DNA from: a virus
Reading direction: 5' to 3' (one strand)
Length of the DNA stretch: 64,000 nucleotides
IMG/VR virus record: IMGVR_UViG_3300031949_000013
Span: 30,012 to 94,011 of that record
In this document: piece after piece, positions 9,298-56,952 of the stretch
How the letters are laid out: the number at the start of each line of letters is the position of its first letter
How positions within the stretch are numbered: the first letter of the stretch is position 1
Position numbers and translations under genes: made by a program
The notes under the pieces: generated by a model
Databases searched by the model: none
The model's input: only the letters and a program-made list of their open reading frames with translations
What the model was told of the DNA's origin: nothing

Positions 9298-11138
9298 AGT
9301 GTCAATCCGGTGGCTATCTCCGAAGAACGCTCAAAGAACGTCTCCAGAATCGAGTTGGGGTTAATCTCGACCGCTCTCAAAAGAGCAGCTACTTCATCTG
9401 GATTTGAATCTGGATCGATCTTCGTGAATGGGACATCTCTCAAGGTCATCAGGTCCACGTTGATACGCACTTGGGGTTCGGCCGAACGGAGCCTCTCATA
9501 CTGTACCTTGGTCAAACCGGTGAGGCCAGATCGATACAGAGCCTCTACCGTACCGTGAGCTTGAACCAGAGCCCTGAGAATCTTCTTTGGGACTCGGGGC
9601 ACGCCCGGAAGGTTGTCCGAGCTATCCCCAGTGAGAGCCCGGAGCTGTACCATGTCCGTAGGCTTCACACCATAATGCTCTTCTACCGCTTCCGGGTCAA
9701 ACAGCAACTCTTTTCTACTACCGATGGCTGGAATGAGGACGGAGACGTTCTCGGAGACGACCTGAAGGAAATCCCTGTCCGTGCCGAAAATGACTGTTTT
9801 CTGGCTGGAAAGCTTCTTCCGAACGAGAGTTGCGATGACGTCATCAGCCTCCTCATTAGGGTTGAATACCTGGTAAACCCCAAGACAAGGCAAAATCTTC
9901 CGAAGATAGCCCATCTGATCGAAGATCGGAGTGCCGGCTCTCGAAGGACGATTGGCCTTATATTCCGGATACTTGTCCTTCCTACGACGCGATGAGCCAT
10001 CCCAAGAAACATAGAGGGCGGATGTGTTGAATCTCTTCCGAAGCGCTCCCAGGCTCCGGAGAAAGCCTAGAATGACTCCCGTCGGGCGTCCTTGACTATC
10101 CGCAAGTTCGGACATCCCAGGGGCGTACAGGCACCGAAAGGCAAGGTTGTGACCATCGACGATGATGTTTTGAGGCATTTTTCCGGCTCCTGCTCTCCGA
10201 CGAGTCGCCTTCTTCCGCAGCAACTCGTTCATCTCTGCTCTGATCTGTCTACCCCGTCCGAGGACATCCTCGAACCAAGCCAACTCCAGCATTCCGCTCT
10301 CGATGACCATCCCGATCGCGGGATCCTCGATCCGCTTGTCCGCTTTGATGAATCTGGAAGTCGGGGCAGCGGCCATCAGCCACCCGGATAATCGCTCTAT
10401 CTCGGCGACTCTGCTTGGGAAATTCCACTTTTCCAGAGGATGATCGAAGAATCGGATGAAGGAGTAGGTCCGACTCCCATGGGTGTTCCAGTGGTTGAGC
10501 TGCTTGAGGCCCTGGTAACTATGGAGCACTGTGTCAAAGCCATTCTGCCAGGAAAACACAGGGTCGCTGCCCTGGACCCAGACTCGAAGCTGACCCAGAC
10601 GGGCTAGAAGCGGGGAGAGCGGGCTTCGGGTGCTGACCTGGAGGAACGACCTCGGAAGGGTGATGATGGTCTGCTTCGACCGAAGCTTAATGTAGACCTG
10701 GACGGCATCCTGCTCCGGGATCTCCTCGATGACCATGGCCTCGATGTGCTTGAAGTGGCCAGAAGTGATGACCACTGTATCCCCGACACCGATCCCCTGA
10801 TTGACCTCCAGATCGATCTGGCTGCGAATCTGGTCGATATGAGCGTCGGGTACCGTGGCCAGGACTCGATACCGAGACCCGTTGGTCTTGGTCAACACCG
10901 TATGGACGAACCGAGTGCCCTCCAGTTTGAAGTAGGCGGTGTCCGGAAGGGTCTTTCGAATGAAAGCGTACCCCTCCATCAGATAGTGGATGACGCGATC
11001 CCCACCTACTTGGGTCACGGCAGCCGGGATGAAAACTTCGCCCGGTTGTTTCAGCGATTGGAGGATGCCCGCCTTGAGAGCATCAGGGTCCTCCCCCTCG
11101 CTTTTCGGACTGAGTTCAAGGACAACCCACTCGCTCAT
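9294..11138 (-). CDS. NusG-like (NGN+KOW) domain fused to 5'-3' exonuclease (PolA N-term/FEN family)
   Basis: N-term W.V...EVFIP...LMEGYAFI and KOW GDTVVITSGHFK; C-term IVDGHNLAFR, EADDVIATL, DRDFLQ, ALTGDSSDNLPGVP. Confidence 0.8.
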   Translation of the reverse strand: MSEWVVLELSPKSEGEDPDALKAGILQSLKQPGEVFIPAAVTQVGGDRVIHYLMEGYAFIRKTLPDTAYFKLEGTRFVHTVLTKTNGSRYRVLATVPDAHIDQIRSQIDLEVNQGIGVGDTVVITSGHFKHIEAMVIEEIPEQDAVQVYIKLRSKQTIITLPRSFLQVSTRSPLSPLLARLGQLRVWVQGSDPVFSWQNGFDTVLHSYQGLKQLNHWNTHGSRTYSFIRFFDHPLEKWNFPSRVAEIERLSGWLMAAAPTSRFIKADKRIEDPAIGMVIESGMLELAWFEDVLGRGRQIRAEMNELLRKKATRRRAGAGKMPQNIIVDGHNLAFRCLYAPGMSELADSQGRPTGVILGFLRSLGALRKRFNTSALYVSWDGSSRRRKDKYPEYKANRPSRAGTPIFDQMGYLRKILPCLGVYQVFNPNEEADDVIATLVRKKLSSQKTVIFGTDRDFLQVVSENVSVLIPAIGSRKELLFDPEAVEEHYGVKPTDMVQLRALTGDSSDNLPGVPRVPKKILRALVQAHGTVEALYRSGLTGLTKVQYERLRSAEPQVRINVDLMTLRDVPFTKIDPDSNPDEVAALLRAVEINPNSILETFFERSSEIATGLTL

Positions 11139-11147
11139 TTTGTAACA

Positions 11148-12533
11148 CTACCCCCGCCAGGATCGCTCGAAGGCTCGTTTCCAGTCGCCAGGCGGCAGCA
11201 CCTTCTCCTCCTTCGAGGCTGTCACCACTCGCTTGTCCCCTTCCTCATGCCCCCTCGGGTGATCCTTGGGAACACCAAACTCGTCTACGGTTGTGAGAGC
11301 CATCGGGTCAGTTCCCAGATTTCCAGCTTTCCCATTGGTCACGGGAGGTGTTGGGGCAGGGACTTGAGGGGATGGTATTGGAGGGGGCGTAGGCTTGGAT
11401 GCCGCGATTGGTATTGTTGGAGCTGATACTGGTGATACTGGGTTTGGAGAGGAATGTAGTTGCAATTGTGGGGTTTGGGCAACAGGAATTTGTTGAGGAA
11501 GTTCCATCGTGGTGGTCAAGGCCACCACATCGCAGATGAGCCCTACCTTCGTTCGTGCCTGAGCAGATAGGAATTTGCGGGTATAACCGACGATCGAGGG
11601 TCCGTATTTCTTGTACAGCTCCTCTGCCTTCGCCCTGTCCACATAGGTGAACTCGGCAAACATTTTGTTGGCGAGACGGTAGGTGTTCATGGCCGCTTCG
11701 GCCAATCCAACCGAAACCTCCTCGGCACCCACCTGATCACAAGCGTCCTCGATCAAGGGGAGGGACTTCGTGGGGTCGTCGAGGGACAACAGAATTTCGT
11801 AGTAGGTCGTGGTCAGTCCAAGCCCCAGATAGTCCCGAACGGCTTCAACCGAGACCACACCAGCCTGCGAAATCATCTCCAGCCGATTCATGATGTCCCG
11901 AACATGCCCTCCAGAGCTGTCGATGACCGTGAACAAGGCATCTTCCTCGTATTCGACCTGTTCAGCTTGAAGGATTTGCTTCAATCTTTCGGCTATATGT
12001 TCCCGAGTTATCTTGCGAATCCGGTGCTCCTCACATCGTGAACGAATCGCCCCCCGGATCTTGTCCGGCTCGGTCGTGCAAAAAATGCCGACCATGTCCT
12101 TCTCCTCGATGGGCTTGAGGAGAACATCCTGGGCTGCATTGCTCATCCGATGAGCTTCGTCGAAGAGGTGGATTTGCTTGACGGCTCCCGGCACAACAAA
12201 AGGCAAATCATCCACGATCTGCCGGATGATGGCAACAGTCCCTTGACTGGCGGCATCCCGCTCATGAAAGGCCAAGGAGGTGTCGCTCAAGATCGCTTGA
12301 CAGTTCTCGCACTTGTTGCAGGGCTCCTGATCATCGGTCAGATGCTCGCACAGCATTGCTCTGGCCAGAACACGAGCCAGGGTCGTCTTGCCCTGGCCGT
12401 GTCCTCCGGAGAAGATGTACGAGGAATCGAGAGCCGTGCCAAGGCGGATCCTGGTCTTCAAGACCTGGACGGCGCCTTCTTGCCCAAGCACATCCGTGAA
12501 GTTCTTGGGCCTATAACGGATATCCCACATCAC
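11148..12533 (-). CDS. dnaX: DNA polymerase III clamp loader gamma/tau subunit
   Basis: RYRPKNFTDVLGQ, Walker A GGHGQGKTT, CNKCENC zinc site, DEAH, SRC motif. Confidence 0.9.
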   Translation of the reverse strand: MMWDIRYRPKNFTDVLGQEGAVQVLKTRIRLGTALDSSYIFSGGHGQGKTTLARVLARAMLCEHLTDDQEPCNKCENCQAILSDTSLAFHERDAASQGTVAIIRQIVDDLPFVVPGAVKQIHLFDEAHRMSNAAQDVLLKPIEEKDMVGIFCTTEPDKIRGAIRSRCEEHRIRKITREHIAERLKQILQAEQVEYEEDALFTVIDSSGGHVRDIMNRLEMISQAGVVSVEAVRDYLGLGLTTTYYEILLSLDDPTKSLPLIEDACDQVGAEEVSVGLAEAAMNTYRLANKMFAEFTYVDRAKAEELYKKYGPSIVGYTRKFLSAQARTKVGLICDVVALTTTMELPQQIPVAQTPQLQLHSSPNPVSPVSAPTIPIAASKPTPPPIPSPQVPAPTPPVTNGKAGNLGTDPMALTTVDEFGVPKDHPRGHEEGDKRVVTASKEEKVLPPGDWKRAFERSWRG

Positions 12534-13042
12534 AGCTCAGATAGCAGGTCTTCGACGTTCTCGGTCTCGGTTTCTGCGGTCTCGACCCCGGCTTCCTCCC
12601 GGGCGATGGTGTCCACCTGGATTTCGTGAGCCACCGAAACGAAGCCGGTGAGCTGGTCATTCCAGGCTCCATGACGACGCAGGATACTGGCGAACTCCTG
12701 GACATCGGGCTCCCGGATCTTCCACGTCATCTCGCCAGACTTTTCGTCTTCCTCGCCCGTGCAGCGCTCCAGGAGATGATCAACAAGGGCTTGGCGAGCC
12801 TCGTTGCTCAGCTCCACCCACTTGTCTCCGGCGACTTCAATGACGAAGTCCAATTCTAAGAGGAATTCTAAGGGTCCAGAAATCTTCCGGGTCTTACCCA
12901 GAACATCGATCCCACCTTTGCTCGACGCCTTGTCCACGAAAATGAACCCGAGTCGAGCCGTAGCTAACTCCGGGTGGTAGTTTGCGATCAATCCTCCTGC
13001 GACGGCTCGGACGGACTCTGCTTCACTGTATACCTTAGGCAT
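12530..13042 (-). CDS. Phage metallopeptidase-like protein (degenerate HExxH)
   Basis: DFVIEV...W..L....RQALVDHLLERC...PDVQEF..ILRRHG. Confidence 0.6.
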   Translation of the reverse strand: MPKVYSEAESVRAVAGGLIANYHPELATARLGFIFVDKASSKGGIDVLGKTRKISGPLEFLLELDFVIEVAGDKWVELSNEARQALVDHLLERCTGEEDEKSGEMTWKIREPDVQEFASILRRHGAWNDQLTGFVSVAHEIQVDTIAREEAGVETAETETENVEDLLSEL

Positions 13043-40620: not shown

Positions 40621-42033
40621 TCAGTCAGTTCCTTTGATGTTAGCGACAGGAAACATCCTGTGGGCCACCCGGGCGATCCCTGTGACCTCCAGGACTCCGA
40701 GTACCTCGTCCAAGTCCTTGTAGACGTGACCACATTCGTCGAGCGGGGTGTGCTTGTGGTTGCCAACAATGCCCTCGATGGTGACCCCATCAAAGACCCG
40801 TTGGACCGTCTTCATCTCGTTGTCGATCCGGTCCTGCTTGTGCTCCAACTTTCGCTTGGCGTCGCCACGACCCATAAGACGACCTGAGCCGTGGTTGACC
40901 GAGCAGGCTGACTTGTAGGCTCCTGGCTCGGCGAAGAGAATCGCTGCCCCGTGATACATCGACCCTGGGATAAGGCACGGGTGCCCTGTCGTCTCCCAAA
41001 CCGTCCCCACCAGGTCCGGATGTCCGGCCGGAAAAGCCCGGGTCGCACCCTTCCGATGGACAAAGCCCCGCTTGGTCGTCCCGTCAGGAAGGACCAGAGT
41101 CTCCTGCTGGACGAGATTGTGACTGATTTCGTAGTAGACCTCGCCCTCGACCCCAAAAACCTCCTGGAGAGCCTCCTGGACGCCCTGGACGATGATGTGG
41201 CGGTTGGCTATGGCGAAGTTAGCCGCTGAGTTGTGGTGAGCCCAGTAGTCCTTGCCTACCTGCTCATCCATCCGAACCCAGGACTCCTCCCGACGCTTCG
41301 AAGACAGACCCCGAGCCTTAGCCCCTTCGTAGAAGAAGTGCTCGGCTGTCTGCCAACCGTAACCCCGGGAGCCACAGTGGATCATCACGTAGACCTCACC
41401 CGTGTCCCGATCTACCTGCATCTCGATGAAGTGGTTGCCACCACCCACAGATCCGAGCTGCGGAACGACCTTCTTCCGAGCACGCTCAATCTTGTTGAGG
41501 TCAATGTCCTCCGGAACCGCGATGAACTGCCGCTCGCAAAGTTCTTCCTTGACCCCTAAAGCCTTCGCTCCGTGACGAAGAATGTCCTCTGCCTGCTTCT
41601 CGGAGAACTTCGGCATGAACTCCGGGCGTGCTGAGCCAACACCCGTAGCAACACGCTTCTCGACCTCCCGGACCCACCGTTCCCGGTTGTACCATCCTCG
41701 GACGCTCTTGGCCGTGAGCGGAACCTTCATGTACAGAACGCCACACGAGATGTCGTAGCCACTGGCAGCCTGAATGACCGTGTCCTCGGTGACGATTACA
41801 CATCCGACAGGGACGCCGTATCCGAGGTGACAATCCGGAAGAGCATAGGCCCCAATCACGCCCTCGTAGCTCGCTCCATTAGCGAGCTGCGACCACATCT
41901 GCTCTTCAGAGGCGTTGTACAGGGAATCCGAAAGGAAAGCATGGGCCTCGACCTTCATGTTCCCCGACTTCGGGAGCACGTAGTGACCTTCCTCGATCTT
42001 CTGGGCAATGTACTTGAAAGACATGACAGTCAC
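40621..42033 (-). CDS. rtcB: RNA ligase RtcB
   Basis: LPDCHLGYGVPVG, GYDISCG, GGGNHFIE, HCGSRG, SHN, VHRKGAT, HGSGR. Confidence 0.96.
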   Translation of the reverse strand: MTVMSFKYIAQKIEEGHYVLPKSGNMKVEAHAFLSDSLYNASEEQMWSQLANGASYEGVIGAYALPDCHLGYGVPVGCVIVTEDTVIQAASGYDISCGVLYMKVPLTAKSVRGWYNRERWVREVEKRVATGVGSARPEFMPKFSEKQAEDILRHGAKALGVKEELCERQFIAVPEDIDLNKIERARKKVVPQLGSVGGGNHFIEMQVDRDTGEVYVMIHCGSRGYGWQTAEHFFYEGAKARGLSSKRREESWVRMDEQVGKDYWAHHNSAANFAIANRHIIVQGVQEALQEVFGVEGEVYYEISHNLVQQETLVLPDGTTKRGFVHRKGATRAFPAGHPDLVGTVWETTGHPCLIPGSMYHGAAILFAEPGAYKSACSVNHGSGRLMGRGDAKRKLEHKQDRIDNEMKTVQRVFDGVTIEGIVGNHKHTPLDECGHVYKDLDEVLGVLEVTGIARVAHRMFPVANIKGTD

Positions 42034-42206: not shown

Positions 42207-43787
42207 TCACCACTGGGTCTTGCTCTTCGACTGCGAGATCCGATCTTTAAGTCCGGATGACTCCTCGACAGGGGCTTCTGGACTCGTTTGCTGGGGAATT
42301 ACCCACGGGATAGCACCACCAGGGAGGGCACCACCTTCCAAACCCGTAACCGTTTGACCCCCAAAATGGAGGTCGGCTACGGGCTGGACCACTGGCTGAA
42401 CTGTCTGGGACGGCTCCGTGAATGCTGCGACCATGTGATCCATCATGCTGTTGCTGACAGAAACATTGGCACCAATGAGGTCTGCTTGAGCTTCCCCATC
42501 CATGCTGGAGACACCGTAGCCCCTGGTCCCAGCAGACTGAACACTCCGGAGATAACCTGAACTAGAAGCGTAGAGATCTGCTCGACCAACGCGAGCACTG
42601 AGACCTCTCGACATGCCACCGAGACGCTCGTGACCTCGGTTCTGGAGCTGCCTAGCCATCTGTTCCATGAGGTCGGCCGCCGTCTTGTATTCGCCCTTCT
42701 TGGCTTGCTCCTCGGCCTCGATTTGGGCTCGAATCATCTGGGCAAGACCAACAATGGCATCGACTTCCTTGTTCGGCTCCTTCTGGACTTCATCGAGCTT
42801 GACAAAAGTCACCTTGGCCTTGATGTCCTCGGACTTCAGCTCTTTCGCCCCCTCGGCATTGAAAACCGAGTAAACGAGGTGGATGTTGAAGACCGTGGAC
42901 TGACGCGGGAACGCTTGTCCTTGCTTCGAGAACTTCGTGGCGAGGACGATGTTCCGCGTCTCCTCAGCCAGAAGGTCCGAGAGCTTGATCTCGACCTGGC
43001 CAGTAACGTCTTCCTCCTCGGCTTCCACATCGGAGATGACCTTGGTGATCTGGTGGCCGTTCACCGGCTCAACGGTGATTTGGATGTCTGTGGCATAGGC
43101 CGAAAGAAGACCTCCCAGCTCCTTGCCGAAAGCCATCAGGGCCGTATCTGGATCCTTGACGTAAGCGTAGTTGCCTTTGGCCTGCTTCGAGCACTCCACG
43201 AGGAAGTCCTGGTCACAGCCGTTGTAAACTCCACCACCGACGTCTCCGTAGCCGAAGAAAGAGATCGTGGTGGCGCTCGTTCCGAGGGCTTGATTGGTGA
43301 GCTTGAGGATAGCTTCCTTGTTCGTGACGCCTTCCGTCGGCTGACCATCCGTGAAGAAAATGATCCGCTGGACGAAACTGAGTGGCAAATCGAGACTCTT
43401 CATGGTCTCGATAGCTCCGGTCAGACCACCCGAGTAGTTCGTCCCTCCCATAATACGGAGATTGTCGATGGCCGCCCTAAGCTTCTCCTTGAAAGCAGGA
43501 GTCACTGCCTCTGGCTTGACCAGAGGGTGGAAATTGCTCTCAAAAGCCAGGAGCCCACAGACATCCCCGGGGGTGAGCTGGTCCACGAGCTTTCGCACAC
43601 TCCTCTTGGCGTACTCCAGCTTCGAGCCCTTCATGGACCCTGAAAGGTCGATGACCGGGAGAACTGCCAACTTCGGTCGCTGATTCAGCCAGTCGATGGA
43701 AGGGGCGATGAGGGACAGGACGAGATGACCATCCGTATCCTCGGTGTGGTTGATCTTGTCGTAGGGAAAACGTGCCAGAATCTCCAT
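42207..43787 (-). CDS. von Willebrand factor A domain protein
   Basis: MIDAS DLSGSM, GGTN, FFTDGQP. Confidence 0.9.
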   Translation of the reverse strand: MEILARFPYDKINHTEDTDGHLVLSLIAPSIDWLNQRPKLAVLPVIDLSGSMKGSKLEYAKRSVRKLVDQLTPGDVCGLLAFESNFHPLVKPEAVTPAFKEKLRAAIDNLRIMGGTNYSGGLTGAIETMKSLDLPLSFVQRIIFFTDGQPTEGVTNKEAILKLTNQALGTSATTISFFGYGDVGGGVYNGCDQDFLVECSKQAKGNYAYVKDPDTALMAFGKELGGLLSAYATDIQITVEPVNGHQITKVISDVEAEEEDVTGQVEIKLSDLLAEETRNIVLATKFSKQGQAFPRQSTVFNIHLVYSVFNAEGAKELKSEDIKAKVTFVKLDEVQKEPNKEVDAIVGLAQMIRAQIEAEEQAKKGEYKTAADLMEQMARQLQNRGHERLGGMSRGLSARVGRADLYASSSGYLRSVQSAGTRGYGVSSMDGEAQADLIGANVSVSNSMMDHMVAAFTEPSQTVQPVVQPVADLHFGGQTVTGLEGGALPGGAIPWVIPQQTSPEAPVEESSGLKDRISQSKSKTQW

Positions 43788-44024: not shown

Positions 44025-44642
44025 TCACGCTGCCTGGATGAAGGACAACCACTCTTCGGGCGCCCTAGACGGGTCGATGTAGGGCTCCGTCATCGGGAGC
44101 ACCTTCGGCTTCCTGGGTACGCTGAGGAGAGCCATACCTGCTTCCTGAGGAGTACGGTCCTCCTTCTTGCTGTTGCAGGGGTAGCAAGCCATCACAACGT
44201 TCTCCCAGGTCGTGGGAGTTCCCGTGAACCCTTCCTTCCGCCACCGAGACTTCGGCGTGACGTGATCGAAGTTCAGCTTCGAGAGCGGGAGCTTGTCCCC
44301 GCAGTATTGGCACATGAAGTGGTCACGAGCCGCTACGTTGATCTTGCTGAACTTGACTCCACTCTTGTCCTTGCTGACCCGCTTCCGAAGAACAGCAACC
44401 GCCGGCACCATGATGGTGATGGAATCGGCATCCGTCCCGATGACCTGCCGAAGAGCCCTTCGCAGCTCAGGAAACACCGCCAAGTGGTTCCGCCCGATGA
44501 CCGCCAAGACCTCATTGTATTGGACGAGGACTTCAATCTTCCCGGAGAACATCCGAGTCACGGCGTCCTTCCAGTCGATGATCTCGTGGGGCTTGTAGGT
44601 CTGGTTCAGGATGAGAGTTTGAGCAAACGACGAGGACATCAC
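44025..44642 (-). CDS. HNH endonuclease (McrA-like)
   Basis: RDHFMCQYCG, NFDHVTPKSR, WENVVMACYPCNSKK. Confidence 0.9.
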   Translation of the reverse strand: MMSSSFAQTLILNQTYKPHEIIDWKDAVTRMFSGKIEVLVQYNEVLAVIGRNHLAVFPELRRALRQVIGTDADSITIMVPAVAVLRKRVSKDKSGVKFSKINVAARDHFMCQYCGDKLPLSKLNFDHVTPKSRWRKEGFTGTPTTWENVVMACYPCNSKKEDRTPQEAGMALLSVPRKPKVLPMTEPYIDPSRAPEEWLSFIQAA

Positions 44643-44883
44643 ACACCTACCTCATAGGGTTCTCCGGAATACGTCGGGCCGGGTTGGAAATCAACCCTTC
44701 GAGCGAAACTTCGCCAAGTTTCTAGACAGACCAGATCATCAATTTGGCCCATTGGCCAATGCAAGACGACCCAGTCTGCGGGAAAACGAGAGGCCGGAAT
44801 CTTCCGACCTCTCAGGGGCCTCGGCTTCTACACCACCGGCCTCCACCACCTCAACGGCTTTGAAACCGTCAAAGACTTTTTCG

Positions 44884-45216
44884 TGGACTCGCCGGGAATC
44901 GAACCCGGATCCGCGAGACTTCCAGCTAATCTTCGTTCACGTGCGTAGTCACCGTATCCCCGGAGACTGAGTTCTCGGGTTCGGCCGAGACCTACTTTCC
45001 GTGTACTCCTTGCTCACCTACTCGGAACTCCTCGGTGAACCAGCCCTAGTGCTTGCGCCAGTCTTGATACCAGGACGATCTCTCTAGACTGACGGCTCAG
45101 GCCGCGAGGCCGAAAGCAGTTGCGTTGTCGTTCGCAGTTGATACGACCCATTGAAGAGATGGGTGCTCTTGCACGCAGACTATCCTTCTGTTCCCACGTC
45201 GAAACCAATCGAGCCC
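44884..45216 (-). ncRNA. ssrA: tmRNA; tag peptide (A)NDNATAFGLAA at 45097-45135
   Basis: 5' GGGCTCGATTGGTTTCGAC, Ala-like acceptor with G3:U70, 3' T-arm GGTTCGATTCCC, tag ending LAA-stop. Confidence 0.95.
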
Positions 45217-47485: not shown

Positions 47486-48019
47486 TCGTTTTCTCCGCTC
47501 TCTACCGTAAAGAGCAATCGAAGTGACTTCTGCCCAACCTTTACCACCACACCAGCCAGGTGTTTGACTATGGCAGTTTGGGCAAATGAACTCTAAGTTA
47601 GAAGGTCTGTCGTCCAGCCAATCCCGGTTCTTGTGATTGACCTGGAGCATCAGAGGCTTATCATTCCACGTGGCGTTCAAGTTACAGGCACTACACTGAT
47701 AGGGGACACCGGATTCAATCAGAGCACGTCGTAACTGGTAAGCTGCTCTCCGATTTCCAGACTCTCGTTTCACTAGAACCCTTCGCCAAGATTTCTTCTT
47801 GGGTCCACGATGATACACTCCTGAGTTGGCCGTTTGGCCTCTGAAGTGTGAAGTGTCTACACCGTATTCTCGAAGTCTTTTAGCTATGAGGGTTTGTGTG
47901 CCTCCGGCCTGACGTAGTCCAAGGATGCGCAACACACCTGCTACCGAGATGGATTGGCGTGCGGCATCCTCAAGTAATTGCTTAGTGTACACACGACGGG
48001 GTGGGTAAGGTCTTGGCAC
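47450..48019 (-). CDS. HNH homing endonuclease; its stop codon is the TAG anticodon of tRNA-Leu
   Basis: CSAC...LQVNHKN...NLEFICPNCHSQT; GTG start at 48019. Confidence 0.85.
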   Translation of the reverse strand: MPRPYPPRRVYTKQLLEDAARQSISVAGVLRILGLRQAGGTQTLIAKRLREYGVDTSHFRGQTANSGVYHRGPKKKSWRRVLVKRESGNRRAAYQLRRALIESGVPYQCSACNLNATWNDKPLMLQVNHKNRDWLDDRPSNLEFICPNCHSQTPGWCGGKGWAEVTSIALYGRERRKRAGVVERQTHRI

Positions 48020-48046
48020 TCTACAATGGCAGAGACCATAACAAGA

Positions 48047-48079
48047 AAACCGCCGCGTCTGCCATTCCGCCACTGGAGC
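48047..48079 (-). pseudogene. 5' half of a tRNA-Leu truncated at the anticodon
   Basis: GCTCCAGTGGCGGAATGGCAGACGCGGCGGTTT then unrelated sequence. Confidence 0.75.
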
Positions 48080-48083
48080 AGGG

Positions 48084-51040: not shown

Positions 51041-51044
51041 AATC

Positions 51045-51385
51045 CTGAGCATCTCTGTAAGCGGGGTTCTGTCGTGGATAGTTATTCCTCTAGGCCCACC
51101 GTCACCGATGGGCTCAAGCAGCAACCCGGAGACTCGGGCGAGCAGCCCTCGAACGTCCCCTGTTTGCCTTGCTCCGGGCCTCGCCCCATGCCTCACGTGT
51201 TACCACGTGAGCGGTGGGCTTTTACCCCACCGTTTCACCCTTACCTAATGCAAGCACTAGGCGGTCTGTTTTCTGTTGAACGAGTGAGACATCACTGCCT
51301 CCCAGGCGTTACCTGGAACCCTGCTCTATGGAGCCCCGACTTTCCTCAGGGCCGGAGAAGCCCTGCAACTATCTGAGGTACTCAA
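51045..51385 (-). ncRNA. rnpB: RNase P RNA (bacterial type A)
   Basis: P4 halves GAGGAAAGTCGGGGC and ACAGAACCCCGCTTA; GGGTGAAACGGTGGGGTAAAAGCCCACCGC; GGAGCAAGGC; P1 terminal stem. Confidence 0.93.
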
Positions 51386-51915: not shown

Positions 51916-52300
51916 ATGAAGTCGTCGATGCGTGCGGAGTCGATGGCAGACTGCGCATACAAGATCACACTTGGCGATCTCCCGCAGAATAACCTCTCGG
52001 CTGACCCTGAGATTGCGCATCGTCGCGACGGCCATCACCTTCTTACCTCGAACATGATCGAAGTCCATCGCACACGGATGATACTCGTTACCGCAATCTA
52101 TGCAGGGCTTCCTCTTCAACTCGTTGATGAACTCGTCGTAGGCAAGGTTGTGAGCCCTGGCCTTTGTGAGATAATAAGCCTTGTTTTCTCGGTAATGCCG
52201 GCGAGTGTACTGCCGATGGCATTCCTTGCAGAAAGGGTTGAAGCCGTCTTTCCGGGACGTGTTCTTGGTGAGTCTAACAAATAGATTCGTAGACCTTACA
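51901..52300 (-). CDS. HNH-like endonuclease (start uncertain, possibly 5'-truncated)
   Basis: CKEC, CIDCG...DFDHVRG...KCDLVCAVCHRLRT; paralog of 56470-56952. Confidence 0.65.
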
Positions 52301-52307
52301 CTCTTCC

Positions 52308-52690: not shown

Positions 52691-52702
52691 GTAGACTACA
52701 CC

Positions 52703-52789
52703 TGGCGGAAGATAGAGGTCTCGATCCCCAGTCCGTTCAGGACCGCACCGCTTTCAAAACGGGCTCAGCTCCTAGCCGATTTACCTTCC
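52703..52789 (-). tRNA. tRNA-Ser(TGA), 8/4 fold
   Basis: 8-bp acceptor, 4-bp T-stem, long D-stem, loop TT-TGA-AA. Confidence 0.82.
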
Positions 52790-52945
52790 GTAGTCGGCCC
52801 GCTGTTCTTTCTCAGAGAGCCTGGCCTTCTGCTCTTGCCGAATCTGCTGACCTAGGTTGCCCTTCATACCATTGCCCTTATGGGGCTTGCACCAAAGACA
52901 ACCAGCACGAAGGTCTTTCCGCTTACCACGCTTGTGATGCGCCAT
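52781..52945 (-). CDS. Small basic protein (54 aa)
   Basis: MAHHKRGKRKDLRAGCLWCKPHKGNG..., RBS AGGAG. Confidence 0.6.
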   Translation of the reverse strand: MAHHKRGKRKDLRAGCLWCKPHKGNGMKGNLGQQIRQEQKARLSEKEQRADYGR

Positions 52946-54293: not shown

Positions 54294-54445
54294 ACCTGAT
54301 CCACTCAAAGCCCAAGGGAAGGGTAATGCAGGCAAGATAGACTTGGTGACCACCACGCTCGCACCTTCCCAGGTCGTAAGACCTGTCCGCACCCGACCAA
54401 GAAGGTTACGGAATTTACTTTCCCAGGGCTCTGAATGGATCAGGC
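54294..54445 (-). ncRNA. 6S RNA-like rod with central bubble
   Basis: ~28-bp imperfect closing stem, two-sided ~13-nt bubble, apical stem. Confidence 0.55.
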
Positions 54446-54447
54446 GG

Positions 54448-54520
54448 TACGGGACGTGGGGATCGAACCCACCTGATCTTGCTTGTCGAGCAAGTGCCGT
54501 CACCAGACGACAAGTCCCGC
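54448..54520 (-). tRNA. tRNA-Val(GAC)
   Basis: Loop TC-GAC-AA (C33). Confidence 0.85.
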
Positions 54521-54524
54521 ATGA

Positions 54525-54741
54525 TCAACCTCGACTAGAATGACCGAGACTGGCGCTCGTCACGCCTGTATGGCCGGCACATTACATCCCCACGGTGCCT
54601 TTCGACATCGTGTCCAGTTTGGATGCAGTTCGCCCCGCAGGAGATAAGTACGAGACCTATCTCCCGCCGTCGCTAACTGGATTGCTCCAGGCTCGCTACC
54701 TTAGGACCGTTATTGTAATCCCTGTCGGCATTCGAGATTGA
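54525..54741 (-). ncRNA. Y RNA-like 6 (cargo starts with 23S rRNA H69/H70 sequence)
   Basis: CTCGAATGCCGACAGGGATTACA-ATAACGGTCCTAAGGTAGCGA ... CTAGTCGAG. Confidence 0.8.
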
Positions 54742-54742
54742 T

Positions 54743-54817
54743 TGGTCAGGGCGGCGGGGATTGAACCCGCCAACGCCAGTCCCCCAGACTGGTGGCCCAC
54801 CTTGAGCCTTCGCCCTG
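54743..54817 (-). tRNA. tRNA-Pro(GGG)
   Basis: Loop CT-GGG-GG, CCA. Confidence 0.88.
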
Positions 54818-54912: not shown

Positions 54913-54978
54913 ATAACCGCCCGCCTACCAGAAGTGTCCAGTGATTTCTCACTAACTGCCCCCAGTGCGCAACGGTAG

Positions 54979-55063
54979 CGGAAAACGGAGGTCTTGATCC
55001 CCAGTCCCGTAAAGGACCGCACTGCTTTCGAGGCAGGCTTGGCTCCTAGCCAATTCATTTTCC
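54979..55063 (-). tRNA. tRNA-Ser(CGA), 8/4 fold
   Basis: Loop CT-CGA-AA. Confidence 0.82.
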
Positions 55064-55067
55064 ATAG

Positions 55068-55114
55068 ACGACCTGTTCCGTTGCTCCCTTCCGGGCCTGG
55101 CGGGTACAGATCGT
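55068..55114 (-). ncRNA. ffs: Minimal SRP (4.5S) RNA domain IV
   Basis: CGCCAGGCCCGGAAGGGAGCAACGG core closed by ACGATCTGT/ACAGGTCGT. Confidence 0.78.
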
Positions 55115-55202
55115 TGGCGGAAAGCCGAGGTCTTGATCCCCATACCCTTTCAGGTACACATCGCCTTCCAAGCGAGTCTGGCCCCCGGCCAGTTGACTTT
55201 CC
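55115..55202 (-). tRNA. tRNA-Ser(GGA), 8/4 fold
   Basis: Loop TT-GGA-AG, CCA. Confidence 0.82.
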
Positions 55203-56464: not shown

Positions 56465-56535
56465 CAGGGCTAGTAGGAGTCGAACCCACTCGGCAACGGA
56501 TTTGGAATCCGTCCGGCTACCTCAGCCTTAGCCCT
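56465..56535 (-). tRNA. tRNA-Trp(CCA)
   Basis: Loop TT-CCA-AA. Confidence 0.85.
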
Positions 56536-56952
56536 AAGTTTTACCCAACCTTGCTCGCGTGCTGTCTTTCGGCGATGGCAGTTGGCGCACCGAACCTCGC
56601 ACTTCAACATCTCTAATTGAATCTTGGCCCAGGAGTGACCGTTCATAATCATCCTAGCTATACCAGCCAACTTCTTCCCTCGAACATGATCCCAATCGAG
56701 GACTACAAGGTCATTCTCCCCGCAGTCTACACAAGATTTCCCTTGAAGGATTTCGAACACCCTCTTCCGACTCTCGTGCCTCTTGGCCAAGGTTCTCAAC
56801 CTGAACGGTTTGGGATTGTCGTAATACCCTTTCAGATTGACTTTCCGTTGGCACTGGCGGCAGATGCTCTGGCGAGTGCCCTTCTTTTTCGACCGCCAAT
56901 TGAAGTCCTTCTCCGGATCTTTCGGGTGTCTGCACTTTGGACATGTCCTCAT
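56470..56952 (-). CDS. HNH-like endonuclease reading through tRNA-Trp
   Basis: CPKC, CRQC, CVDCG...DWDHVRG...KCEVRCANCHRRKT. Confidence 0.82.
   Translation of the reverse strand: MRTCPKCRHPKDPEKDFNWRSKKKGTRQSICRQCQRKVNLKGYYDNPKPFRLRTLAKRHESRKRVFEILQGKSCVDCGENDLVVLDWDHVRGKKLAGIARMIMNGHSWAKIQLEMLKCEVRCANCHRRKTAREQGWVKLRAKAEVAGRIPNPLPSGFDSY

Follow-up and report, generated by a model that had tools for sequence, protein, structure and literature searches.

Why would an RNA built like a Ro60 partner carry a piece of the ribosome? Y RNAs act both as tethers between Ro60 and other proteins and as gates of its cavity, and YrlA mimics tRNA (PMC4201824). In the tRNA array of the phage described here, one Y RNA-like gene opens its cargo with an exact copy of 23S rRNA. 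This raises the questions of whether the copy is real, whether it is kept by selection, what structure it belongs to, and what it might bind.

The RNA array and its Y RNA-like elements

The window, meaning the whole stretch of DNA analysed here, is the last 64 kb of a 94-kb IMG/VR record that is ~20% complete according to CheckV. Relatives of the phage are jumbo phages of 250-620 kb, and the record is a jumbo-phage fragment. A long RNA array on the minus strand runs from 59.1 to 44.9 kb of the window and holds 48 tRNAs (ARAGORN), several more tRNA-like elements, an RNase P RNA and a tmRNA. The RNase P RNA is a full-length bacterial RNA of class A (262 bits); it and the tmRNA lie on the minus strand at 51042-51384 and 44883-45216. 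Both are present in the closest relative, G001, and at least the tmRNA is found in another relative, G003. Three repeated elements of ~85 nt (54913-55200 and 52691-52790, minus strand) resemble long-arm tRNAs and are possibly tRNA-Ser with a CGA anticodon; ARAGORN calls none of them, and one overlaps a weak match to the archaeal SRP model. ORFs with cysteine-rich and HNH-type motifs in gaps of the array (56470-56952, 51916-52307 and 47486-48080, minus strand) are probably mobile endonucleases, and an HNH ORF at 44025-44642 is confirmed by Pfam. Downstream of the array, on the same strand, lies an RtcB RNA ligase gene (40621..42033, minus; Pfam RtcB, E = 2.9e-88). The region between the RtcB and tmRNA genes encodes a 526-aa protein with an N-terminal vWA domain (42207-43787, minus) that is not a TROVE protein.

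Printing the gaps between the tRNAs revealed 12 YrlA-like Y elements with one common handle in the array. The element of interest occupies 54530..54736 on the minus strand and, with both handle strands included, measures 207 nt. Its minimum free energy (MFE) is -89.7 kcal/mol, with z = -4.2 relative to shuffles. The tRNA-Pro(GGG) gene (54743..54817, minus) stops 6 nt before the element, and a tRNA-like element (54448..54521, minus) begins 8 nt past it. The latter reaches 34.8 bits with the tRNA-Sec model, which is below the gathering score, and is not called by ARAGORN. The Y RNA would be cut from a long tRNA/ncRNA transcript by tRNA-processing enzymes. Processing of the tRNA-Pro(GGG) 3' end would set the 5' end of the Y RNA, and RNase P cleavage at the tRNA-like element would set its 3' end.

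The handle comprises two stems and conserved unpaired bases on both strands. Its 5' strand (54712..54736, minus) consists of the terminal stem, GAAUGC, the second stem and UACAAU. The 3' strand (54530..54551, minus) fits the 3' consensus of the paralogues and YrlA; in the 12 elements this side reads GUCUC...CU(U)GUC, followed by the terminal stem. The handle motif is common to the element and its 11 paralogues, six of which are sub-threshold matches to the YrlA family (RF02553), with scores of 24-48 bits compared to a gathering score of 69. The best paralogue aligns to all 114 positions of the YrlA model in Rfam. Since this alignment covers the full model, the shared motif corresponds to the YrlA Ro60-binding handle, and the 5' handle motif of the element is that of the paralogue aligned to YrlA positions 1-23. 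Terminal stems vary in sequence yet stay complementary in 7 homologues. The conserved Ro60-binding handle is present in the element, where it is predicted to bind Ro60. The preliminary description had called the element a Y RNA, an identity that is upheld by the handle it shares with the YrlA-matching paralogues. The RF02553 model itself gave no match in 54440-54745 even at E values up to 10; the model contains a tRNA-like domain, and the element is without one. ARAGORN and Rfam found no tRNA or tRNA-like match inside 54530-54736, and no Rfam family covers the cargo. Sequence comparison of the handle supports the assignment of the element as a phage Y RNA-type RNA.

A different handle was seen in G003 (452 kb, 94% complete). 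This record encodes Y-like RNAs with permuted tRNA-like cargos and no rRNA segment at L043:8686-8858, 10714-10854, 11993-12157 and 12420-12552, and their handle reads GGGCACCC...ACAAGC / CAACUCGGGUGCCC. No TROVE gene was found in G003, which suggests another partner protein for its Y-like RNAs.

The 23S rRNA segment and its distribution in phages

Directly after the handle motif common to all 12 Y-like elements, positions 54713-54693 (minus) form an exact 21-nt match to E. coli 23S rRNA 1916-1936. The preliminary description had reported this copy of the H69/70 region, placed it next to a conserved stem and considered it unlikely to arise by chance, and each of these points was confirmed. Neither the window nor the 94-kb record contains a second copy of the segment, and a match to it was absent from all 100 shuffles even when 3 mismatches were allowed. 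In the short-word BLAST comparison that had been proposed, carried out with the whole window against E. coli 16S, 23S and 5S rRNA, the segment stood alone above noise with E = 6e-5; the next best matches were 14-mers with E ~0.9. No other part of the window has a significant rRNA match. According to the Rfam LSU structure line, the segment begins with the three bases that end the H69 loop, continues through the H69 3' strand, C-UAA-G turn and GUAGC linker, and stops at the first base of the H70/71 closing pair. As the first two bases (AU) belong to the shared handle sequence UACAAU, the cargo-specific identity amounts to 19 nt (54711-54693). This part, R1 (54693..54711, minus), runs from the H69 3' strand to the start of H70. 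When flanks are included, 24 of 26 nt match 23S rRNA; there is no collinear 23S similarity beyond the segment, and the LSU model gave no match at the element.

A chance match, a captured scrap of rRNA or an assembly chimera would each leave the segment without a function, and the limitation of the match to 21 nt in the window's copy is what such an origin could produce. The expected chance count, however, is close to zero. Run X2, an independent freshwater metagenome from a different study, contains a contig identical over 54639-54789, an interval that spans the tRNA-Pro end, the handle, R1 and the next hairpin; because the junction is identical there, the chimera that the preliminary description had considered is dismissed. 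The segment is also conserved across divergent phages while its flanks diverge, and control 19-mers of 23S rRNA are essentially absent from viral contigs. An origin by chance, capture or misassembly is hence exceedingly improbable, and we regard it as refuted by the X2 junction, the model-based alignment and the conservation figures given below. A relative with ~90% identity was observed in another freshwater metagenome, run X4. It is identical through the handle, R1 and the following elements hp1 and R2 and then diverges before 54667. Its next hairpin has a different stem with 10 of 12 loop bases the same, including CGUACU; the sequence is a single low-depth contig.

Conservation of the segment was assessed in other phages. 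The closest relative (G001, RtcB 96% identical) is not usable: its contig begins within the array, at a point already downstream of where the homologous element would lie. In G011 (RtcB 75% identical), a Y-handled element at the syntenic place, between tRNA-Pro and tRNA-Leu(GAG), has a cargo that opens with R1 carrying one G-to-A change. Pattern scans of IMG/VR identified five more Y-handled R1 elements (L087, L100, L093, L103 and L118) and one R1 element in which no handle could be recognised (L084; the L086 sequence is identical as far as it was read). Without exception, these R1 elements lie inside tRNA arrays of unrelated phages, and the rRNA-like element is single-copy in each genome searched. 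The window copy, G011 and the five IMG/VR elements constitute the seven Y-handled elements, and handle-less L084 is the eighth member. Mean pairwise identity of R1 among the seven is 96%, and that of the remaining cargo is 55% in global alignment, compared to 54% for shuffled sequence; aligning the complete elements with MAFFT gave no reliable result. Y RNAs homologous to the element do keep the segment in other phages, a point on which the preliminary description had staked its reading, and the suggested extension of Y RNA mimicry from tRNA to rRNA gains from this retention in all seven. The comparison supports the view that R1 is a selectively kept rRNA look-alike.

Several further searches were negative within their scope. 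A 701-nt region gave no match in cultured-phage records, the exact pattern of handle plus segment had no second copy in IMG/VR, and the paralogue-specific handle pattern was absent from JGI metagenome contigs. A query with the protein encoded upstream of the array returned only relatives of <=63% identity from viral and metagenome contigs, and the viral-contig loci that matched it and were checked had no adjoining tRNA array. A covariance model of R1, hp1 and R2 detected no diverged copies in the loci fetched from 12 other jumbo-phage records. No RNA run was listed among the public sequencing runs holding the sequence.

Enrichment in viral contigs is specific to this part of 23S rRNA. Two other universal 23S 19-mers occur at 0 and 1 IMG/VR loci, and the single locus is a true rRNA gene. 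R1 occurs at 17 IMG/VR loci, 14 of them without rRNA context; the rest are true 23S rRNA (L095 and L097) and a longer rRNA-like piece (L088). The enrichment of H69/H70 in phage genomes relative to two empty controls suggests that phage-host conflict includes a contest over the H69/H70 junction. We know of no bacterial factor with a role at this junction in such a conflict.

Similar rRNA segments are also found in phages that have no Y handle at all. One handle-less RNA lies in an AT-rich phage tRNA array (L084:2300-2640, minus). It matches 23S 1912-1936 at all 25 nt, shares the hairpin and UAGCGA box of the Y-handled elements, and also has a stretch like the H68 tip and a GUACGGAGGCC element like the H68/H69 boundary. 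In cyanophage-like contigs, ~33 nt at L125:2040-2120 are nearly identical to 23S 1910-1942, with one G-to-A change, and are followed by a different hairpin and a CACGAUUGCCG box like 23S 1966-1975. Segments of this family (also L105, L107, L108, L112-L114, L121, L123, L126-L130, L135, L137 and L140) are intergenic, lie between a terminator and a sigma-70-like promoter, and have no Y handle. Two cultured phages have look-alikes of this rRNA region as well. Vibrio phage PWH3a-P1 (L143:1500-1525; NC_020863.1 ~80887-80910) has a complete, unannotated intergenic H69 hairpin look-alike with A for G1910, a stem variant as in the Y-type elements. Enterobacter phage Arya (L144:1200-1245; NC_031048.1) has an unannotated intergenic look-alike of H71.

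The handle-less copies (L084/L086, the L125 family, PWH3a-P1 and Arya) resemble the Y-handled ones in that 19-33 nt of the same rRNA region are identical or nearly so, and L084 has the same module of R1, hairpin and R2 within a tRNA array. They differ in lacking the Y handle, and the H69 loop or H71 is retained in some of them. For those located between a terminator and a promoter, an RNA role is only putative. The existence of rRNA segments without a handle means that Ro60 is not required for the role of the segment, and the handle-less phage copies suggest that the segment has a ligand of its own.

Structure of the cargo and a possible domain IV junction

R1 is followed by a GNRA-capped hairpin, hp1 (54677..54692, minus), at the position of H70/H71. 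A second UAGCGA box, R2 (54668..54676, minus), comes next and pairs in the model-based alignment with the UAGCGA that ends R1, closing hp1 with an H70-like helix. A hairpin directly follows R1 in 8/8 members, and its stem sequence differs in each. Its loop is a GNRA tetraloop in the window copy, G011, L100, L093 and L103, and other loops are present in the rest. In the model-based alignment, 85% of cells are paired versus 71% in shuffles, and slid controls reach 17-45%. Both sides change in 5 of the 9 pairs, and none of 500 shuffles reaches this covariation score. The closing pairs between R1 and R2 (U-A, G-C, C-G and A-U) are kept in 6 to 8 of the 8 members. The covariation of hp1 shows that R1 is embedded in a real RNA structure, with a GC/GC closing helix that resembles H70.

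This structure bears on the idea that the segment is kept as DNA, as a target or decoy of a homing endonuclease, and not as RNA. The segment overlaps what we take to be the classic I-CeuI site in rDNA, HNH endonuclease genes are present in the array, and related segments occur in intergenic DNA between terminator and promoter in other phages. However, no HNH gene of the array adjoins the element, and every Y-type case sits at a fixed place in a structured RNA gene, with a covarying hairpin and a pairing box. The co-occurrence with Ro60 described below also speaks against a DNA site, and a nuclease for it would cut every host rRNA operon as well. A role at the DNA level appears very improbable.

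The rest of the cargo consists of two larger hairpins and a short pairing element. Hairpin A (54637..54667, minus) has 13 bp, folds, and takes the junction position of H67. The loop of hairpin A holds a 9-mer (54647-54655) that the preliminary description had noted as complementary to the sarcin-ricin loop. The 9-mer is indeed present in the hairpin loop, but its significance is at chance level: the element contains 3 nine-mers complementary to E. coli rRNA compared to a mean of 3.1 in 2000 shuffles. It is found at the same position in 0 of 6 Y-handled homologues. As a complement at chance level that is not conserved, it was rejected as meaningful. One lead in the other direction is the low-depth X4 contig, whose loose end has a loop resembling that of hairpin A on a different stem. 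The composite hairpin with a GAAA tip (54576..54636, minus) also folds, and takes the position of H68. It is built alike in G011 and L100, with what reads by eye as one G-C to A-U swap in the basal helix. The GGCCAU element R3 (54567..54575, minus) can pair with CGGUC of R1, reproducing pairs of the 23S H69 stem. A small hairpin B predicted by folding (54552..54566, minus) lies between R3 and the 3' handle strand and is absent in G011 and L100.

R3 has counterparts in the homologues. GRCC is found 27-41 nt before the 3' end, just ahead of the 3' handle strand, in 6/7 Y-handled elements, and handle-less L084 also has GGCC, 80 nt before the end of the excerpt taken. L103 has GGCGG at the R3 place and breaks one H69-like pair. 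Four core pairs between R1 and R3 are kept in 7/8 members, and L093 has A-U where others have G-U. The H69-like closing helix is almost without covariation because both strands are nearly invariant. When the cargo is folded alone, R1 pairs with R3. The MFE fold of the window cargo alone is a four-way junction of this closing helix, hp1, the 13-bp hairpin and the composite hairpin, and the order of the helices matches H69, H70/71, H67 and H68 of domain IV in the Rfam LSU structure. The R3 elements of L087 and L103 are significantly like 23S 1886-1914 (p ~0.008 and <0.002), the end of H68 and the 5' strand of H69. In the window copy, the similarity of R2 and R3 to 23S is not significant, and only 19-21 nt are significantly rRNA-like. 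It is plausible from these folds that the cargo mimics the four-way junction of 23S domain IV; we go no further than plausible since the two H69-like strands hardly vary. A hairpin of the handle GGGAUU with GGUCCU of R1, seen in an MFE fold, would resemble a whole H69 and was rejected, as it competes with the Ro60 stem and is impossible in G011.

The proposed mimic can be compared with the domain IV core itself (H67-H71, E. coli ~1830-1975). The H69 3' strand, C-UAA-G turn, GUAGC linker and first H70 base are identical, a GC/GC helix closes the next hairpin as in H70, the GGCC strand can form H69-stem pairs, and the four junction helices come in the same order. In contrast to the ~150 nt of the 2.9-kb rRNA, the element is circularly permuted, has ~140 nt, and is not in a ribosome. 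Unrelated hairpins stand at the positions of H67 and H68 in the window's copy. The element has no H71, no H70 internal loop and no counterpart of the functional H69 tip, which argues against ligands needing those parts.

YrlA (RF02553; PMC4201824; 10.1101/312249), the type of bacterial and phage Y RNA that Rsr/Ro60 binds, is the nearest described relative of the handle, with a 5' terminal stem, GAAUGC, a second stem, a CUAC-type bulge and a 3' side of GU..C / CUUGUC. Like YrlA, the element is a neighbour of tRNA genes; in relatives of the phage, its counterparts also have a Ro60 gene nearby. In the proposed fold of the element, as in YrlA, a translation RNA is imitated with its natural ends sealed and is joined to the handle via its would-be loop, the anticodon loop in YrlA and the H69 loop in the element. 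The cargo of YrlA is a rearranged tRNA look-alike, whereas that of the element starts with exact 23S 1918-1936 and seems to reconstruct the junction of domain IV. The element also differs in being missed by the Rfam model, and there is no Ro60 gene in its 94-kb record. Described species have one to a few Y RNAs, and the element is one of 12 Y-like genes in a single array.

Ro60 co-occurrence, possible ligands and significance

The Y-handled rRNA-like element co-occurs with Ro60. TROVE/Ro60 genes are present in 5 of 6 records with the element versus 1 of 24 related or comparison records without it; completeness reaches at least 90% in 9 of these 24. In G028, ~0.2 kb separates the element from a downstream TROVE + Ro60-vWA gene, and a tRNA-like Y element lies in this gap. 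No TROVE, Ro60-vWA or DUF2828 domain was found in the 94-kb record, which covers ~20% of the genome. The Ro60 gene of G011 lies ~12 kb upstream of the first tRNA of the array, and an equivalent position might fall ~7 kb past the end of the window's contig; this is a weak guide, since only 1 of 5 flanking ORFs is shared with G011.

The best-supported reading is that the RNA serves as an off-ribosome bait, coupled to Ro60, for a factor recognising the base of H69 and the H69/H70 linker. The first bases of the cargo reproduce exactly the 3' strand of H69, its linker to H70 and the beginning of H70; the next hairpin takes the place of H70/H71, two more come after it, and the terminal GGCC element would pair back to the first cargo bases with pairs of the H69 stem. 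Such pairing would put the Y handle where the H69 tip belongs. The RNA would thus present a site of 23S domain IV away from the ribosome. The bait would be bound by a factor whose normal target is this part of the 50S interface, and the factor would thereby be titrated or recruited to the phage Ro60 and the RNA-repair or decay enzymes that are its partners; RtcB is encoded downstream, and jumbo-phage TROVE with RtcB has been interpreted as an RNA-repair platform (PMC7824862). Candidate factors include a nuclease, a modification or assembly enzyme, a ribosome-splitting factor, or the 30S subunit. We infer with somewhat better than even confidence that the element is a phage Y RNA carrying a look-alike of 23S domain IV as a Ro60-coupled bait for a factor that recognises the site.

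The copying of a short rRNA structure outside the ribosome has precedents. Leaders of ribosomal-protein operons and other off-ribosome mimics copy a short rRNA structure and capture the binding factor of the real site. The element resembles these leaders in having a piece of rRNA copied outside the ribosome. They act in cis, as mRNA leaders of cellular genes, and their protein ligands are known, whereas the element is a stand-alone phage RNA on a Ro60-type handle, and its ligand is only putative.

The preliminary description had proposed a decoy or splint for rRNA-targeting toxins or repair enzymes. A splint is unlikely because the segment is identical to rRNA and not complementary to it. A decoy is plausible in the genomic context, given RtcB downstream and Ro60 in relatives. 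In its sacrificial form, a ribotoxin nuclease recognising H69/H70 would cleave the cargo and not the 23S rRNA of the host or of ribosomes serving the phage, and Ro60 and RtcB would handle or reseal the fragments. The RtcB gene lies on the same strand as the array. Cleaved rRNA within ribosomes is a substrate that RtcB can repair (PMC9304027), and nucleases aimed at H69 exist, H69 being a nuclease target in eukaryotic ribosomes (PMC13189344). The near-complete set of stable RNAs in the phage suggests pressure on translation RNAs. However, the H69 loop, which is the cut site of the known H69 nuclease, is replaced by the Y handle, and the H70 loop is replaced by a hairpin. The UUCCU site of MazF-mt6 is in the H70 loop. 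A literature search found no bacterial nuclease targeting 1919-1936, and to our knowledge none is known. A sacrificial decoy is for these reasons considered unlikely, though it is the least unlikely of the rival accounts.

The ligand could also be the small subunit, as the cargo may imitate the 50S surface that forms bridges B2b/B2c with 16S h24/h45. The RNA would then sit on free 30S and deliver Ro60 there or compete with subunit joining. The element retains the base of H69, the linker from there to H70, and the junction, including the positions of H67 and H68; these parts carry central intersubunit bridges, and the protein-poor 50S interface offers few protein ligands. Against such docking, the cargo has neither the H69 tip (B2a) nor H71 (B3), which are the main bridge elements, binding by an isolated junction would be weak, and complementarity to 16S rRNA is not beyond chance. 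We consider a 30S-docking adaptor decidedly unlikely, more so than a sacrificial decoy, and prefer the Ro60-coupled bait for a site-recognising factor.

The only cargo described so far for bacterial or phage Y RNAs is a tRNA mimic, and Y RNAs are seen as tethers or gates of Ro60; we found no description of rRNA-like Y RNAs in the literature. The sequence comparisons support the conclusion that RNAs with a Ro60-type handle imitate rRNA as well as tRNA. A selected rRNA-junction cargo in several phage lineages with Ro60 would make the cargo a modular address label. It points to a ribosome-linked target and provides a handle on what bacterial and phage Ro60 RNPs act on. A broader and more tentative proposal, which we hold to be possible but doubtful, is that jumbo phages with Ro60 have a set of Y RNAs with interchangeable miniatures of translation parts (tRNAs and the bridge junction of 23S domain IV), each directing the same surveillance or repair machine built on Ro60, or a bait that titrates, towards a different factor associated with the ribosome. 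If this is true, a phage could intercept attacks of the host or of rivals on the ribosome, or control subunit joining, and the handle-less copies in unrelated phages would mark a widespread new factor that reads the H69/H70 junction.
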